From: a virus
Direction: 5' to 3' (one strand)
IMG/VR virus record: IMGVR_UViG_3300015371_000017
Location: 11,101-75,100 of that record
DNA length: 64,000 bases
The translations under genes and the position numbers were made by a program. Below the pieces are notes generated by a model. It saw nothing but the letters and a program-made list of their open reading frames with translations. It made no database searches and was not told the DNA's origin. Shown piece by piece: positions 4,838 through 52,673 of the stretch (position 1 is its first letter; the number at the start of each line of letters is the position of its first letter).

Positions 4838-4881
4838 TTTCAACTACAACTATCATCGTAACGGTTGTGATTATGCAAATC

Positions 4882-5469
4882 TTATTTGCCCTTGATGTTG
4901 CCTGCTACTTCAAAGCTACTTATCCTGCTCGGCAACGATTTATGTACGTGCCTATCGTTGGTGGTTTTATTGCTTTGCTGGCTTGCGGCAAGCAGTCTCA
5001 GCGGCGCGGTTAGAATTCTTTCCACTGCCCACACTGCTTGTCTAGCGGGGACAAATACAGACGGATCGTGAGGTTCGTTGTGCCAGTCACAATACTGAAA
5101 TTGTCGGAAGTTCTTCTCGCTGACAAAGAGATTTTCGTTTTCAGGATAACCGAAAATGTAAGGCGAACTCTTGCCCCATAACACTACGCCGTTTTTCAGT
5201 TTGTAATACGCGCATAGATGCGGCAGGAAACTATCTACGCTCACCCAGACATCACACTCGCCCACCAAGTCTCGAATCCGTGTTAAAGGTAGACCAATAC
5301 GGAATTCGTCTACTCCTTCAATTCGCTGCTCGCCTTGAATGCCAATCTGGATAATATGATGCTCGTTGGCTTTCAGCATGGTAACAAGTTCGGGCCAGTG
5401 CGGATATTCCTTGGCGGACTTCGCGCCGCTTGGAAGTTTAGCAGGGTATGGCGCGATTAAAATCTTCAC
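4882..5469 (-). CDS. Glycosyltransferase, GT9/heptosyltransferase-like C-terminal (GT-B) half
   Basis: AKEYPHWPELV...IIQIG...VSVDSFLPHLCA...GVVLWG...IFGYP. GTG 5469 overlaps the upstream TGA and has a GGAGG RBS. Confidence 0.75.
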   Translation of the reverse strand: MKILIAPYPAKLPSGAKSAKEYPHWPELVTMLKANEHHIIQIGIQGEQRIEGVDEFRIGLPLTRIRDLVGECDVWVSVDSFLPHLCAYYKLKNGVVLWGKSSPYIFGYPENENLFVSEKNFRQFQYCDWHNEPHDPSVFVPARQAVWAVERILTAPLRLLAASQQSNKTTNDRHVHKSLPSRISSFEVAGNIKGK

Positions 5470-41557: not shown

Positions 41558-41841
41558 CCGACGTAGCTTGCATTTGTCCCGTAGTAGAAATCCGCGATAG
41601 CGGCGATTTCGTTACTGAGGCTATGATGCTGAAGATCGCCCGTGATCTGAGAGCTACCGTCACGCTGTCAAATCCGAAGTCGCACAGAACGGTATTCGGC
41701 AAACACCTGATGACTTGCCCTTGCTGGACGCGATCATCTGAAGGCTTTAAGGCGGGGCTGTGCGTAGGCCGTTTTGGAACTAACTCAGATGGGTGTACGA
41801 AGTGCGGGCTGTCTCGCGCAGATCACGGGGAGGCGCAATGA
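41554..41841 (+). CDS. IS passenger gene 2, Cys-rich hypothetical
   Basis: ATGA-coupled to passenger 1 and to the transposase. Confidence 0.6.
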   Translation: MTDVACICPVVEIRDSGDFVTEAMMLKIARDLRATVTLSNPKSHRTVFGKHLMTCPCWTRSSEGFKAGLCVGRFGTNSDGCTKCGLSRADHGEAQ

Positions 41842-42755
41842 GCCGCAGCACAATCTCAACCTTCCAACTATTCGAGTTAATCCCTGACGCAGAGTCGGCC
41901 CGTCTCTACCTTGAGGGCCGACTGTGGCCCAACGGTGCGACGTGTCCGACTTGCAAAAAGGGCGACCGCATCACAACGCGGAAAGGCGGTTACTATCGCT
42001 GCAACGCTTGTCAGTTGGATTTCACTGTCCGAACGGGAACTATCTTTGAGCGGTCGCATATTCCGCTTCACAAGTGGGTTTATGCGATGTATCTCATGGT
42101 GACGGCCCGCAAGGGCATTTCGTCGCTACAGTTGGCGAAGGAGATCGGGATCGGCCAAAAGGCTGCATGGTTCATGCTTCACCGTCTCCGCGAGGCTTGC
42201 GGGAAGGATATAGAGAAGCTACGCGGCATTATCGAAGTTGATGAGACGTTCATCGGCGGTCGTGAGTCTAACAAGCACGAGAACAAAAAGCTGAAACAGG
42301 GACGCGGTTCGGTTGGCAAAACTCCAGTGCTCGGAATGCGAGAGCGCGGCGGCAACACTAAGGCGTTTGTTCTGGACGGTTCCGATCTTGGCACGATTCA
42401 ACAATGCCTTTTCGATAACATCGAAATCGGATCGACCATCTACAGCGACGAGCATCACAGCTACTCTGGCCTTGACGGGCTTTTCTTCAAACACGCCGCT
42501 GTCAATCACAGTGCTGGACACTTCGCACGCGGCCCGGTTAACACGAACAGCATAGAGTCTGTTTGGGCCGTCATGAAGCGCGGCGTCAACGGCGTCTATC
42601 ACCACATCAGCAAGAAGCACACAGAGCGTTACGTTGACGAATTTACTTTCCGGCTGAACGCGGGTGACGTGCGCCGTCACACCTTAAAGCGGCTCGATTC
42701 CTTCATTGATGCCGTTAAGGACAAGCGCATCACTTACGCGGAGCTAACAGCATGA
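41838..42755 (+). CDS. IS1595/ISXO2-like DDE transposase
   Basis: Zn ribbon CPTC...CNAC, GTIFERSHIPLHKW, EVDETFIGG, IYSDE, NSIESVWAVMKR, YVDEFTFRLN. Confidence 0.95.
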   Translation: MSRSTISTFQLFELIPDAESARLYLEGRLWPNGATCPTCKKGDRITTRKGGYYRCNACQLDFTVRTGTIFERSHIPLHKWVYAMYLMVTARKGISSLQLAKEIGIGQKAAWFMLHRLREACGKDIEKLRGIIEVDETFIGGRESNKHENKKLKQGRGSVGKTPVLGMRERGGNTKAFVLDGSDLGTIQQCLFDNIEIGSTIYSDEHHSYSGLDGLFFKHAAVNHSAGHFARGPVNTNSIESVWAVMKRGVNGVYHHISKKHTERYVDEFTFRLNAGDVRRHTLKRLDSFIDAVKDKRITYAELTA

Positions 42756-48284: not shown

Positions 48285-48429
48285 TTCTCTTCCTCCTGCT
48301 TTTTTGGTTCAGTATCGAGGGGTTCGATGTAGACGGTTTGATGTAGATCAGTCTCGTCTCTAGTCGAGACTTTATGAGTGCGCCGATTGATCGGAATTAC
48401 GATTGTCTCGTCGTCAGGGTCGATTACTT

Positions 48430-48585
48430 TCACCGCGCCTCCATCTCGGCACAATCCGCGCAAACCCAGCGTGTCCACCTCCGTGAACCTGATTCATTGC
48501 GAAAGCGCATAACTCCGCGCCGATGAAGGCGGAATAAACAGTGAAGCCAGATACCAATCTTATAGCCAATGGGTTGAGTTCGCAC
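48430..48585 (-). CDS. 51-aa Cys/His protein, leaderless first gene of the membrane cluster
   Basis: TAGACA-N18-TACAAT lies 6 nt before GTG 48585. HCLFRLH...CADC. Confidence 0.5.
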   Translation of the reverse strand: MRTQPIGYKIGIWLHCLFRLHRRGVMRFRNESGSRRWTRWVCADCAEMEAR

Positions 48586-48643
48586 GGGCGGATTGTACGC
48601 CGCATTTAGTAGGGATGTCTATGAAATTCAATGAGGTTGCTGG

Positions 48644-48726
48644 AGAAACACGAAACCCGCTAGGTGCTGCTTAGGAACCTAACGGGCCGTGCTGATTGTT
48701 GAGATCAGGTTGAACGAGCTTGCTCA
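48644..48726 (-). ncRNA. Candidate antisense sRNA (locus A)
   Basis: Promoter TTGTAA-N17-TAGGCT, 5' hairpin GAGCAAGCTC, seed TTCAACCTGATCTCAACA, terminator CCCGTTAGG/CCTAGCGGG followed by TTTCGTGTTT. Confidence 0.55.
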
Positions 48727-48785
48727 CTTAGAAGCCTATCAAAAAAAGTGTTGCGTTACAACTTAAATCGGCGTATCTTGGGCAT

Positions 48786-49195
48786 GTTGAGACTAGGTTG
48801 AAAATTGAAGTCCTTCCGATTCCTTTCAACCCGTACTAAATCAACTTTTGTCGGATGCTTTACCTATGACGCTTTTGAGTAATAGCGTAGAACCCTATCG
48901 GTTGGCTGCTTGGCTGATAGGAAAACGTGCCGCAGGGCGCAACGGAAGTTGCGGGGCAGACTGTCTGAAACTTCGGTAATTCCGATCCCTAGTAACGTCC
49001 CCTGACCATAGTAGGGCCGCAAGGATAAGACAAAGCAGCGCGCGAAAACTGAGACACCTCAGCGGGCTCACACCTTAAATCCGACAAGACGCAATCGCGG
49101 TTAAATCTTTGCGCCGTTTAGTAGACGCCGTGAAGTTGGGCAAACCACGTACTTACGTTGCCTAGCGTCTCACACCTAAAAGCGAGAGGATGGTT
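48786..49195 (+). ncRNA. Candidate long structured RNA / leader (locus A)
   Basis: Promoter TTGCGT-N17-TATCTT. No ORF of 60 aa or more. Several hairpins with G-U pairs on this strand and GNRA loops. Confidence 0.5.
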
Positions 49196-49200
49196 GAGTG

Positions 49201-49524
49201 ATGGCAATAGACAAGATTCCGAAGGTTGGACGGTTCCTTTTCACGGAAAGTATGTTACGAGATGGCTTCTTCCGACGCACGGGAACAATCACTAAAATAT
49301 CGGGTAAGCGCATTTACTACGACGAGCACAAGGACAGCACAATTAACACTGAGCGGTTTATTCATCGTAAGACGCTTGCCGCCGTCTGTGACACGTCGGA
49401 AGAAATTGAGGCGTTGCGATCATTCAACAGCCGCGCCTTAGCGGAAGTGGGCGCACTGAAAGCACGTCACAAAGAGGAAGCCGCAAGATTTTTTGACAAT
49501 GAAGTGTCTGATTTGCCGAAATGA
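49201..49524 (+). CDS. Hypothetical protein
   Basis: GAGG RBS at the end of the structured leader. Confidence 0.55.
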   Translation: MAIDKIPKVGRFLFTESMLRDGFFRRTGTITKISGKRIYYDEHKDSTINTERFIHRKTLAAVCDTSEEIEALRSFNSRALAEVGALKARHKEEAARFFDNEVSDLPK

Positions 49525-49726
49525 CGCCGACTACGGCGACGTATGTAAGAGTTGCTATCGCGGTCTTGAGGCGTTCAAGCGAAACACAAAGTATCTTGGG
49601 CGAGCGATAAGTTATCTGAAAAAGAAAGCGAAGCTGATAACGAAACACGACCGCCGCGCGAGGCGAAAAAGAGCGGTAGAATTACGCAAGTTGATCGCGG
49701 AACAAAAAGCAGACCGTAGATCGTGA
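49499..49726 (+). CDS. Endonuclease-VII-like C-terminal fragment protein
   Basis: CLIC...VCKSCYRGLEAFKRN...LGRAISYL. Confidence 0.4.
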   Translation: MKCLICRNDADYGDVCKSCYRGLEAFKRNTKYLGRAISYLKKKAKLITKHDRRARRKRAVELRKLIAEQKADRRS

Positions 49727-49743
49727 AGTGGCATGACAGATGA

Positions 49744-50196
49744 TCACCCAGAGCTATCGTAAGTGGCTTCAAATCCGCAATCAGGGCACTTTACGTGCTG
49801 GTCGTGCATTCGCGGTGAGTCCCATTTCCAATTTGGATGCTGACAGCCCAAGAGATAGAAATGCACGTCGTAACCATAGCCGTCGCCATCTTTGCTGATC
49901 CACGTTCCAGCCTTTGGCGGATCATCCGATTTCTTCATATAGCGTTCGGCTACCGCGACAGCTTCACGATGAAAAAAGTAGTAATGCCACGAATACCACC
50001 ATTGACGGTCATTAGGATCGGCATCGGGCAGCGGCGCGGAGCCACCGTAGTTCAATCCTTCCAATCCCCAAGGCCCACAATGGAAGTAACGAATAAAATC
50101 ATTCTGAGAGATTTCAGTTAGCGGCGATGCCGCTCGATTCGGGCCGTTCTCCCATTTGATGCCGAAAATATCAGGCTTGCTCCACTGGATTCTCAT
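49744..50196 (-). CDS. Hypothetical protein with C-terminal Zn ribbon
   Basis: GGAGGAG RBS before the ATG, CQH...KCPDCGFEATYDSSG. Confidence 0.55.
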   Translation of the reverse strand: MRIQWSKPDIFGIKWENGPNRAASPLTEISQNDFIRYFHCGPWGLEGLNYGGSAPLPDADPNDRQWWYSWHYYFFHREAVAVAERYMKKSDDPPKAGTWISKDGDGYGYDVHFYLLGCQHPNWKWDSPRMHDQHVKCPDCGFEATYDSSG

Positions 50197-50353
50197 ATTC
50201 TCCTCCACCACCTCAACAACCTGCGCCAAAGAGGAACAGGCGTGTCTTGAAGGGCATAGCTGGCAACCTTCTTCTCGTAATTCAACACGATCTCATTTGG
50301 TATAAGGCGTCCTAGATGTCGCATGGTTACTCCTCTCAGCCTTGAGTATTGAA

Positions 50354-50458
50354 GTTGCGCGACCCGGCTTCGTCATGAAACCAGCCTGAGCGTATCGCCC
50401 TTCCTAGGTGACGACCGCCTAACCCGCTACGGCAAACCGCAGGGACGGAGCCGCGCAA
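50354..50458 (-). ncRNA. Candidate multi-stem ncRNA
   Basis: Closing stem TTGCGCGGCTC/GGGTCGCGCAA encloses three hairpins. Confidence 0.4.
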
Positions 50459-50481
50459 AACTTTTCAAATATCAGGACAGT

Positions 50482-50579
50482 TGCGCAGCGGACAGGACTC
50501 GAACCTGCAATCGAGCACCTCATCGCGTTTAGTGCTCACGGGCATTCCGCGCGTCTGCCATTTCCGCCACTCGCCGCGC
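50482..50579 (-). tRNA. Atypical tRNA-like RNA (Leu-type D arm, no canonical anticodon arm)
   Basis: D arm GGCGGAAATGGCAGACGC, T arm GCAGG-TTCGAGT-CCTGT, acceptor GCGCGGCG/CGCTGCGC, no encoded CCA. Confidence 0.6.
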
Positions 50580-50636
50580 AACATCTGGTAGGCCGAAGCT
50601 GTCCTGTTCGGTAGCGGAAAGCCTCGACCTGAAAGT

Positions 50637-51260
50637 TCAACCTTCGAATTGAAATACTTCCTGACTCATTCGCTTCGCTGCTATCTCGCAATACTTTTCT
50701 GACTTTTCTATGCCGATTGCCGTTCTGCCGAGATCCTTAGCGGCTCGAAGAGTTGTGCCTGAGCCCATGAACGGATCAAGGATCGTTTGCGCTTTCGTTC
50801 TGTTAATAAGCCACTTTGCCCACTGAAGAGGCTTCGGGCAAGGATGACCATTCGGCGGTACTGGTTGAGCATAAAAGTAATCGTGCATCTGAAGCCCCTG
50901 AATCTTTCCGTAAACTAGCAGAGGCTCCCAATCATTGAATCCGATATACGCTGCGTGTCCGGGCGATCCTTTGTACCAACAAATCAACCAATCGGGCGGG
51001 ATTGTTTTATAAATCCACTCGAGCTGATTTATCTGACATGACGGCAAAATGCCCATGTCGGCATTCGCTTTCACCCATCCCACAAGAAGCAGCATCAGAG
51101 TGCGCCAACCTTCCAAGTTGTCATCGTGCGAATCATATTGAAAATCCACGCCATAAGGCGGGTCAGTCAGCACTAAATCAACCTTCGGCAAAGACAGCAG
51201 AATCTCACGACAGTCTCCGTGGTAAATCGTTACTGCTTCGTCTTGGTAATAAGGGGTCAT
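50637..51260 (-). CDS. Orphan DNA N6-adenine/N4-cytosine methyltransferase (beta class)
   Basis: DLVLTDPPY precedes HPCPKP and ILDPFMGSGTT...AIGIE. Confidence 0.9.
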   Translation of the reverse strand: MTPYYQDEAVTIYHGDCREILLSLPKVDLVLTDPPYGVDFQYDSHDDNLEGWRTLMLLLVGWVKANADMGILPSCQINQLEWIYKTIPPDWLICWYKGSPGHAAYIGFNDWEPLLVYGKIQGLQMHDYFYAQPVPPNGHPCPKPLQWAKWLINRTKAQTILDPFMGSGTTLRAAKDLGRTAIGIEKSEKYCEIAAKRMSQEVFQFEG

Positions 51261-51924
51261 TCCCACACGCTTGCGCGTCAGCTTCGACCAGAAGTTTAAT
51301 TCACAATCGTGCGCACTTCTTGAAGTCGCTGATTATAGGCCGTAGCAGCCTGATCGCGGTCAAGATACATTTGAGTCAGCCGTTCGATTGTGTACGGCGT
51401 AAATTCGTCGTCCGGATTTCCTCTGTAGTGAAGAATCCCGTTAATCACTTTTTCTTCGTAGTACATCTGATTCCCCTTTCGCAGCCTGCTCCTTAACGTA
51501 ATCGTCGTAAGCACAATCAGCACACAAAGCAGTCGCTCCTCGGTGGCAATGCGTCAATGCGCAGTCCTTGTCCTCTTCGCAGCGCGGACAATAATGAGAA
51601 TGAAATCCGTTAACCATCTCACCCCTCTCAACTTCGATAAATTCCAAATCGAGTAGCGATGCTCAGGCGTGTCGTCGGCATCGCATCCGGCCTGTCGGAC
51701 ATGTTCCCGTTCAGGCTTCGCATAATGGCCGTTATCCCGAATGCCCTCGTTAAGCATCGCTAGTTGTCACGCCCCAATTCAGCGACTCTAAACCGCCTTA
51801 CTCATTCGGAATGCAGGCGGTCGATTGTCTTGATAGCTGGCTGAAAACGATCCAGCTCAACGGCCTTGGTGAATCTCGATTTCAAAGAACTAGCGCCTCT
51901 CAGCTTCGACCAGAAGTTAAAGAA

Positions 51925-52352: not shown

Positions 52353-52568
52353 CTAACGCTTCTTTTTAGGCCGACTACCGTTTTCGCCATTACCCGACTT
52401 CGCCCGATTGCGTTTTAAGCCAGCAACGGCCTGTGGCGTAAAGAATGCCTGCCGCCCAACGATAATCTCGGCCTCGATGTCGCCCCGTTTGTACATTTTG
52501 ACGAATCCTGGCCGTGTCACGCCGAGTATCGCCGCTGCCTGCTCGGGATTTAGTAAGGTTTTGCTCAC
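52353..52568 (-). CDS. HTH (excisionase/MerR-like) DNA-binding regulator
   Basis: LLNPEQAAAILGVTR...RGDI winged HTH. Confidence 0.75.
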   Translation of the reverse strand: MSKTLLNPEQAAAILGVTRPGFVKMYKRGDIEAEIIVGRQAFFTPQAVAGLKRNRAKSGNGENGSRPKKKR

Positions 52569-52643
52569 GGAAACAGACCTTAACAGAAAAGTTTCAGAGA
52601 TGCAACTTATTTCCTTGACTCTGAGTTTCTTTTATGAAACAAT
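52569..52643. promoter_or_regulatory. Divergent promoter switch with GTTTC/GAAAC operator half-sites
   Basis: Plus strand TTGACT-N17-AACAAT, minus strand TTGCAT-N17-TAAGGT, inverted repeat GTTTC-TTTTAT-GAAAC. Confidence 0.55.
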
Positions 52644-52673
52644 GCCCTTGCTCGTTTAGGGCAGATAAACGCA

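Follow-up and report, generated by a model that had tools for sequence, protein, structure and literature searches.

Introduction

Antisense RNAs are familiar regulators of plasmids, transposons, temperate coliphages and type I toxin-antitoxin loci. In IS10, the RNA-OUT and RNA-IN transcripts overlap and are fully complementary over ~35 nt, a cis-antisense arrangement in which the target is the transposase mRNA. RNA I of ColE1 is also cis-encoded and fully complementary, and its target RNA II primes replication at a defined origin. The put RNA of phage HK022, ~70 nt long and without a partner sRNA, is a cis-acting antiterminator RNA at the head of an operon, and in the par locus of pAD1 the two transcripts (RNA I and RNA II) converge and share a terminator, RNA I encoding the Fst toxin. 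As far as we are aware, almost nothing is known about the RNA regulators of uncultured soil phages.

The phage cassette that we describe here, ~450 bases long and gene-free, looks like a real and so far undescribed unit of RNA-on-RNA control, which recalls each of these systems in some respects and departs from them in others. With the divergent-sRNA type I toxin-antitoxin loci (zorO-orzO, tisB-istR-1 and shoB-ohsC), it shares an sRNA gene that diverges from its target and, with the neighbor's long 5' untranslated part, a complementarity of ~18 nt that derives from a direct repeat in the DNA; OrzO, for example, has 18 nt of complementarity (PMC3919570) to the 174-nt 5' UTR of zorO (PMC5397157). 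This type I feature, a divergent sRNA with a short 5' complementarity, is present here between predicted RNAs, at 16 of 18 positions in the phage under study and 14 of 14 in a distant relative. In contrast to the type I loci, there is no conserved small hydrophobic toxin ORF and the pairing is located at the extreme 5' end; the predicted target, a folded RNA of ~315 nt, has unrelated genes behind it in the two phages. As in IS10, the 5' end of the target is predicted to pair first with the loop of the antisense RNA and the promoters are close and opposite; the transcription units of the cassette, however, do not overlap, are complementary over 14-18 nt and precede genes that are not transposases. 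The likeness to ColE1 lies in a small antisense RNA directed at the 5' part of a longer, folded and non-coding RNA, with a change of fold as the predicted consequence, but here non-overlapping units stand back to back, complementarity again extends over 14-18 nt and there is no Rfam match. Similar to put, the folded RNA lies just downstream of an early promoter and appears portable before different operons, whereas its length (~315 nt), its predicted partner sRNA and the lack of a family match set it apart. Finally, as in pAD1 par, complementarity comes from short direct repeats in the DNA and not from overlapping transcription. Features that define the systems it resembles are missing from the cassette, in which a toxin ORF, overlapping transcription and a family match are all absent. 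We argue below that, more likely than not, a divergent antisense sRNA invades the 5' hairpin of a ~315-nt structured RNA that heads an early operon.

Results

The window, by which we mean the whole 64-kb stretch of DNA that was analyzed, corresponds to bases 11101-75100 of a 75.1-kb IMG/VR virus record that is judged complete and originates from rhizosphere or soil samples; among the sequencing runs found to contain the stretch, none is an RNA run. It belongs to a tailed phage, recognizable by its small and large terminase, its tail fibers and an internal virion protein of 2017 aa that contains a lytic domain; for most of the early genes, family searches of the window returned no known family. 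The cassette is found in a ~590-nt gap between leftward genes, which reach 48478 or 48605, and a rightward two-gene unit (49198-49726, plus strand). It would form a self-contained RNA control element of ~450 bp (48644-49100), made of two facing transcription units.

A homologous cassette was identified by scanning a viral collection with the two stem arms of the leftward terminator (see below). It is carried by L028, a region of a complete 73.9-kb record (G001), and in a blastn alignment L028 4510-4936 corresponds to window 49098-48645 with 72% identity. The two phages are distant: their large terminases share 42% identity at the protein level, to be compared with the 72% DNA identity of the cassette. 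Within 7.7 kb, the cassette is the only similarity that is not a transposase, the other one being an IS1595-like transposase (window 41793-42755; L028 1357-2037) with ~45% protein identity. In L028, the sRNA is followed by an HTH/excisionase-like gene and then by the NinB and Erf recombination genes, and the long RNA is followed by six small unknown genes with their own near-consensus promoter in front. This promoter (TTGACT, 17 nt, TAGAAT) lies between the long RNA and the next operon, at L028 4405-4480, and is itself followed by a hairpin with arms resembling those of the sRNA terminator, a U-rich run being found after the hairpin on the opposite strand. The gene type directly behind the sRNA terminator of L028 has a homolog in the window, a 71-aa HTH_17 (excisionase/MerR-like) gene at the main divergent early promoter region (52353-52568 and 52569-52673). 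Neither the window cassette nor the L028 cassette matched any GenBank phage, and exact seeds (the repeat and three core segments) gave chance matches or none in IMG/VR and GTDB genomes.

The leftward unit is a putative sRNA of ~82 nt (48644-48727, minus strand), with a predicted start near 48727 and a predicted end near 48646. The minus strand of 48640-48735 folds with a z-score of -3.25, and the plus strand with -1.1. An intrinsic-terminator-like hairpin (48644-48693, minus strand; upper stem 48655-48687, U-rich tail 48644-48655) alone reaches z -4.9, none of 200 shuffles being as stable. Terminator and tail are nearly identical in L028, where two lower-stem changes result in U.G and G.U pairs when read on the minus strand, whereas a plus-strand transcript would have A x C at these places. 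Upstream in the transcript, a stem-loop (48692-48708, minus strand) that presents the 7-nt loop CUCAACA (48697-48703) is predicted in both phages; one stem pair is changed from U-A to C-G in L028, and the loop and a 13-nt core (48694-48706) are invariant. The L028 homolog maps to 4851-4941, and a covariance model of the sRNA finds one copy per genome. A preliminary description of this DNA had proposed a leftward RNA of about 80 nt with a hairpin, a seed and a terminator, an anatomy that is supported by the fold scores and by its retention in L028.

Could the leftward unit be a terminated leader, that is an attenuator or antitermination cassette whose similarity to the rightward RNA is secondary, rather than a trans-acting sRNA? 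The late promoter of lambda produces a comparable short terminated transcript, and in Q-type cassettes the promoter and initial transcribed region are the most conserved part. The same part is the most conserved here, and genes of the same orientation come after the terminator in both phages. These genes are nevertheless unrelated between the two phages, and a separate promoter-like site stands between the terminator and the next gene in both (48592-48621, minus strand; TAGACA, 18 nt, TACAAT, which at 10/12 is the best of the region; TTGACT, 17 nt, TAGCTT in L028), which weakens the leader reading. It would also leave unexplained the three-way co-variation with the rightward RNA that is described below. 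We consider a terminated leader unlikely; judging from these sites, the sRNA is instead predicted to be an autonomous unit.

The template of the sRNA seed (copy 1, 48697-48714) and the first bases of the rightward RNA, which are the target of the seed (copy 2, 48785-48802, plus strand), form a direct repeat that matches at 16 of 18 positions and flanks back-to-back promoter-like hexamers, both mismatches being in the center of the 18-mer. The extent of the match and the place of copy 1 agree with what had been noticed previously, but copy 2 is located one base further left. A dinucleotide-shuffled window yields on average 0.225 direct pairs of this quality within 150 nt, compared with six in the real window; the 48697/48785 repeat is the only non-coding pair because the other five are collagen-like coding repeats. 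The leftward promoter-like site (48733-48761, minus strand) combines TTGTAA (48756-48761), 17 nt and TG-n-TAGGCT (48733-48741), scoring 7/12 with an extended -10 TG; L028 has an identical -10 block and retains TTG in the -35. The rightward site (48751-48779, plus strand) combines TTGCGT, 17 nt and TATCTT (7/12), and L028 has TTGCGC, 17 nt and CATAAT (8/12) at the same place. The predicted rightward start (G48786 in the window) is the G of GTTGAGA in both phages. The back-to-back promoters suggested earlier therefore have their hexamers where they had been placed, with positions kept in L028, but they are weak (7/12 each) and a promoter scan of the region listed neither.

In both phages, the CUCAACA loop of the sRNA is complementary to the GUUGAG at the 5' end of the long RNA, an end that is predicted to be single-stranded, and the complementarity continues for 14-17 nt into the 5' arm of the first hairpin of the long RNA (48796-48831, plus strand; arms 48796-48803 and 48824-48831). 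Although the phages differ in the second half of the repeat, the same change is present in both copies: counting from the G of GUUGAGA, target positions 10, 12, 13 and 14 changed together with their sRNA partners (A-U to G-C, G-C to U-A, U-A to G-C and U-A to G-C), and 14 contiguous pairs are therefore possible in L028 (14/14, one of them G.U). The cognate duplexes reach -23.0 kcal/mol here and -24.9 kcal/mol in L028, which makes them 5-10 kcal/mol more stable than the cross-phage duplexes (-18.1 and -14.5 kcal/mol). Thus, the seed complementarity proposed at the outset is conserved in a distant phage, by way of four compensatory double changes. The 3' arm of the hairpin changed along with the repeat, so that 4 of the 5 consensus pairs of the 5' hairpin are compensatory, and the sRNA and this 3' arm compete for the same target bases. 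Between these arms, the 19-nt loop (48806-48824) is 100% identical in L028. The two internal complements that had been reported in the rightward RNA were both located, TTTCAACC at 48824-48831 and TCAAC at 48841-48845. All co-variation counts come from one pairwise comparison, because full-length sequences are available from two phages only. Just before 48806, 17 nt of a contig from another soil run (X10) do not correspond to copy 2; this contig ends short of the sRNA.

Three other sites in the window match or beat the duplex of the seed with its proposed target (-24 kcal/mol in this comparison). One of these is the GGAGGAG ribosome-binding region of a 161-aa gene (50196-50225, minus strand), with a predicted -28.7 kcal/mol; the seed is also predicted to pair with the ribosome-binding region of the 108-aa gene downstream of the cassette (-16.8 kcal/mol). 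According to these duplex energies, the two regions are possibly additional targets of the sRNA, or else chance matches.

The repeats might alternatively act as DNA, serving as operators or iterons for a phage protein at divergent promoters, or as an origin, with no pairing of RNA. Direct repeats on both sides of a promoter region would suit such a function, as would the position of copy 2 over the predicted start site, which is operator-like, the two mismatches in the middle of the 18-mer and a GTTGA density that is the maximum of the window at this locus (6 in 200 nt). However, there is no further full repeat site in the window, the sole other GTTGA-N6-GTTGA being within a gene, and the copies occupy non-equivalent positions and orientations relative to the two promoters. 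A DNA site also gives no role to the conserved stem that presents the loop or to the strand-specific wobbles of the terminator. In L028 the GTTGA-N6-GTTGA layout is lost (its second half is GGTGG) and the inverted arm co-varies, pairing there with bases that only copy 2 has. The operator reading is weakened by this loss of layout together with the hairpin-specific co-variation, and we give it a low probability, similar to that of a terminated leader. A wider GTTGAG regulon was also considered and rejected, the hexamer not being enriched upstream of starts (2/54 sites, rank 706/3677).

The rightward unit, which in the favored reading is the target of the sRNA, is non-coding by several measures. 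ORFs within 48606-49197 reach 58 aa at most, and a collection of 5.8 billion proteins has no gene call in this stretch. Plus-strand ORFs in 48786-49197 encode 25-45 aa that are not hydrophobic; they are broken by indels in X10 and are not common to L028, and comparing 48786-49197, X10 and L028 did not reveal any conserved small hydrophobic toxin ORF in the rightward RNA. The relatives carry indels that are not multiples of three (1, 2, 2, 2 and 1 nt in the X10 contig), and read-through frames of the stretch have no Pfam or PHROGs match. The earlier statement that the RNA has no sizeable ORF consequently holds, L028 having different ORFs. A decayed gene was rejected as well: one read-through frame ends with six codons like those of a nuclease found in a relative (L015, see below; RTYVA/RTYVS and a shared stop), but it has no Pfam or PHROGs match, and tblastn with the L015 nuclease fragment found nothing in the window. 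As for known RNA families, which would have contradicted the suggestion of a new RNA class, Rfam 15 gave 0 matches at gathering score in the whole window and 0 in 48300-49400 at E-values up to 5.

An ORF-free, portable and conserved cassette whose antisense RNA would target a folded RNA at its 5' end could also be read as a replication primer or origin transcript, the sRNA setting copy number or timing in the manner of ColE1 RNA I. No replication initiator or origin is recognized in the window (the lack of an initiator had already been remarked), which leaves room for such a function. On the other hand, neither an AT-rich unwinding element nor an iteron array is present, the sRNA is not encoded in cis and Rfam gives no match to its RNAI or RNAII family. 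Moreover, the L028 cassette is found in an early control region, close to an HTH regulator and recombination genes, and not with replication genes. A primer function appears improbable to us, somewhat more so than the DNA-site and leader readings.

Conservation of the ORF-free rightward RNA defines a core of ~315 nt (48786-49100, plus strand) that is 72% identical to L028 and has a consensus fold. The 400-nt RNA of the preliminary description is ORF-free and probably folded, as had been seen, but its conserved core ends near 49100 (at 49173 in one relative) and not at 49200; a terminator scan of the region found no terminator at the 3' end. The many stems that had been read from the single sequence are no better than those of shuffled sequences: the whole RNA scores z -0.87 and its segments of 120 nt range from -1.7 to +1.5, for a phage background of -0.28 +/- 1.17. 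The helices of the single-sequence minimum free energy fold were discarded, as the variants of runs X10 and X13 give them no support. Structure becomes apparent through the comparison with L028. The two-sequence RNAalifold consensus has 63 pairs, all standard in both phages, of which 8 changed on both sides and 3 are one-sided wobble changes. When 200 control alignments were made by shuffling columns within conservation classes, 0.5% were as good as the real consensus energy (z -3.0) and 1.5% reached 8 or more compensatory pairs; on the minus strand, too, the region folds better than its shuffled controls, at z -2.3. Beyond the 5' hairpin, a long-range helix (48848-48855 with 49080-49087, plus strand) closes a multi-helix domain, with 8 pairs in both phages, one of which goes from U-A to U.G. 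The tip of one hairpin (19 nt, 48931-48949, plus strand) is variable, being deleted in L028 and the place where five substitutions cluster in X10; the remaining indel spots of X10 and X13 are those of L028 and fall in linkers or at the tips of hairpins. Loops without change, stems with compensatory changes and variable tips make up the pattern of a functional RNA, which these two full-length sequences suggest with moderate strength.

We also considered that the region might be a spacer shared through recent recombination, its repeat and stems being chance or functionless relics. The phages are mosaics in which homology stops abruptly at 49146 and 49173, the single-sequence fold is ordinary and a 16/18 direct pair within 150 nt occurs in about one in five shuffled windows. 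Nevertheless, a functionless spacer is unlikely given that the cassette is 72% identical in DNA when the large terminases are 42% identical in protein; in addition, the invariant loops adjoin compensatory stems, the same spots are variable in three lineages and cognate pairs are more stable than cross-phage ones. Of all readings weighed here, we hold this one to be the least probable, and a very small chance is what we would grant it. The comparative data support a complementary sRNA facing a structured RNA, with the predicted sRNA anatomy kept, a target hairpin that co-varies and a consensus fold that exceeds its controls.

Further relatives inform on the edges of the cassette. Among Logan contigs from two other soil runs, X10 covers 48806-49159 and X13 covers 48972-49071 with several small insertions. 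Homology to relatives breaks in a junction segment (49146-49173, plus strand): X10 diverges after 49173, and L015 and the X7 form differ up to 49146. L015, one of two relatives obtained from a metagenome scan (with L016; both have little upstream DNA) and also present in the form of run X7, is 98% identical to the window from 49146 onward. In both L015 and X7, an ORF of the endonuclease VII/HNH type extends up to 49146 and directly precedes the 108-aa gene; in L015, positions 3-248 are the 3' end of this ORF (phrog_1035, E 3e-5), whose last six codons lie in sequence shared with the window. By its position and family, it looks like a free-standing homing-nuclease insertion at the cassette edge. 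A ~1.17-kb segment of the window (50088-51256) is missing from the otherwise 98% identical L015 and, being absent there, is an insertion or deletion module; it contains a 95-nt tRNA-like gene (tRNA-Gly GCC by ARAGORN, 50483-50577, minus strand) and a DNA methyltransferase gene (50637-51266). Other features of the surroundings were noted. The arms of a perfect 12-nt inverted repeat (48389-48400 and 48976-48987, 575 nt apart) fall within a 65-aa leftward ORF and within the long RNA, respectively; beside it is a second inverted pair (12/16), in non-nested order. Finally, a 14-nt string in the IS element (41847-41860, minus strand) equals the 5' flank of the X10 contig at the join with the cassette (TTGAGATTGTGCTG).

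Downstream of the long RNA, the two-gene unit encodes a 108-aa beta-barrel-plus-helix protein (49198-49524) and a 77-aa zinc-ribbon protein (49493-49726). The former belongs to a family of ~100 representative small proteins without a Pfam family, and its AlphaFold model (pLDDT 92) is a five-stranded SH3/Tudor/Sm-like barrel with a long helix, for which a fold search returned generic small beta-barrels only. A ProQ-C-like identity, suggested by the ESM Atlas (score 0.86), is unsupported (Pfam, 2/45 members, E 0.025). Searching for relatives through the 108-aa and 161-aa proteins gave none. Three distant IMG/VR members of the 108-aa family are in tight operons without a long upstream gap, and the idea of a leader that travels with this gene family was abandoned. 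The long RNA is not an obligatory leader either, since a strong promoter intervenes in L028 and the L015 nuclease directly adjoins the 108-aa gene.

Discussion

How could the two RNAs interact? In the mechanism that we favor, back-to-back promoters would produce, to the left, the ~82-nt sRNA, ended by its strong intrinsic terminator and, to the right, a folded, ORF-free RNA of at least 315 nt at the head of the operon behind it. That operon would comprise the 108-aa and 77-aa genes here and six other small genes in the related phage. The sRNA loop would first dock on the unpaired tail at the 5' end of the long RNA, from where pairing would spread into the first hairpin, displacing its 3' arm. 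This displacement would open a protective 5' stem-loop and free the invariant 19-nt loop. The freed loop (48808-48821) could, in both phages, pair with 48851-48861 in competition with the long-range helix, and the domain would unfold. Such a pairing is found in a constrained single-sequence fold of L028 and not in the consensus fold, and when the consensus was computed with the 5' end blocked, no clear conserved alternative fold emerged. The likely outcome would be down-regulation of the long RNA and of the sequence co-transcribed with it, either by cleavage and decay of the duplex or by refolding.

Because different operons follow the long RNA and the L028 operon has its own promoter, the long RNA is more readily seen as an independently active module than as a plain leader. 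It is tempting, although distinctly speculative, to see in the cassette a new portable phage RNA device, in which a folded RNA acts on the transcription or replication machinery and the sRNA is an off-switch that works by toehold invasion, together forming a protein-free timer. Processive antitermination of early operons or R-loop priming would be examples of such a device.

The cassette is non-coding, yet it is better conserved than the large terminase and precedes different genes in different phages. A small RNA paired with a large folded RNA that has neither an ORF nor an Rfam family is unusual. If the pairing is confirmed, the cassette would provide two short invariant motifs with which further members could be found in metagenomes, and it would represent a new RNA family and a simple, portable RNA switch.
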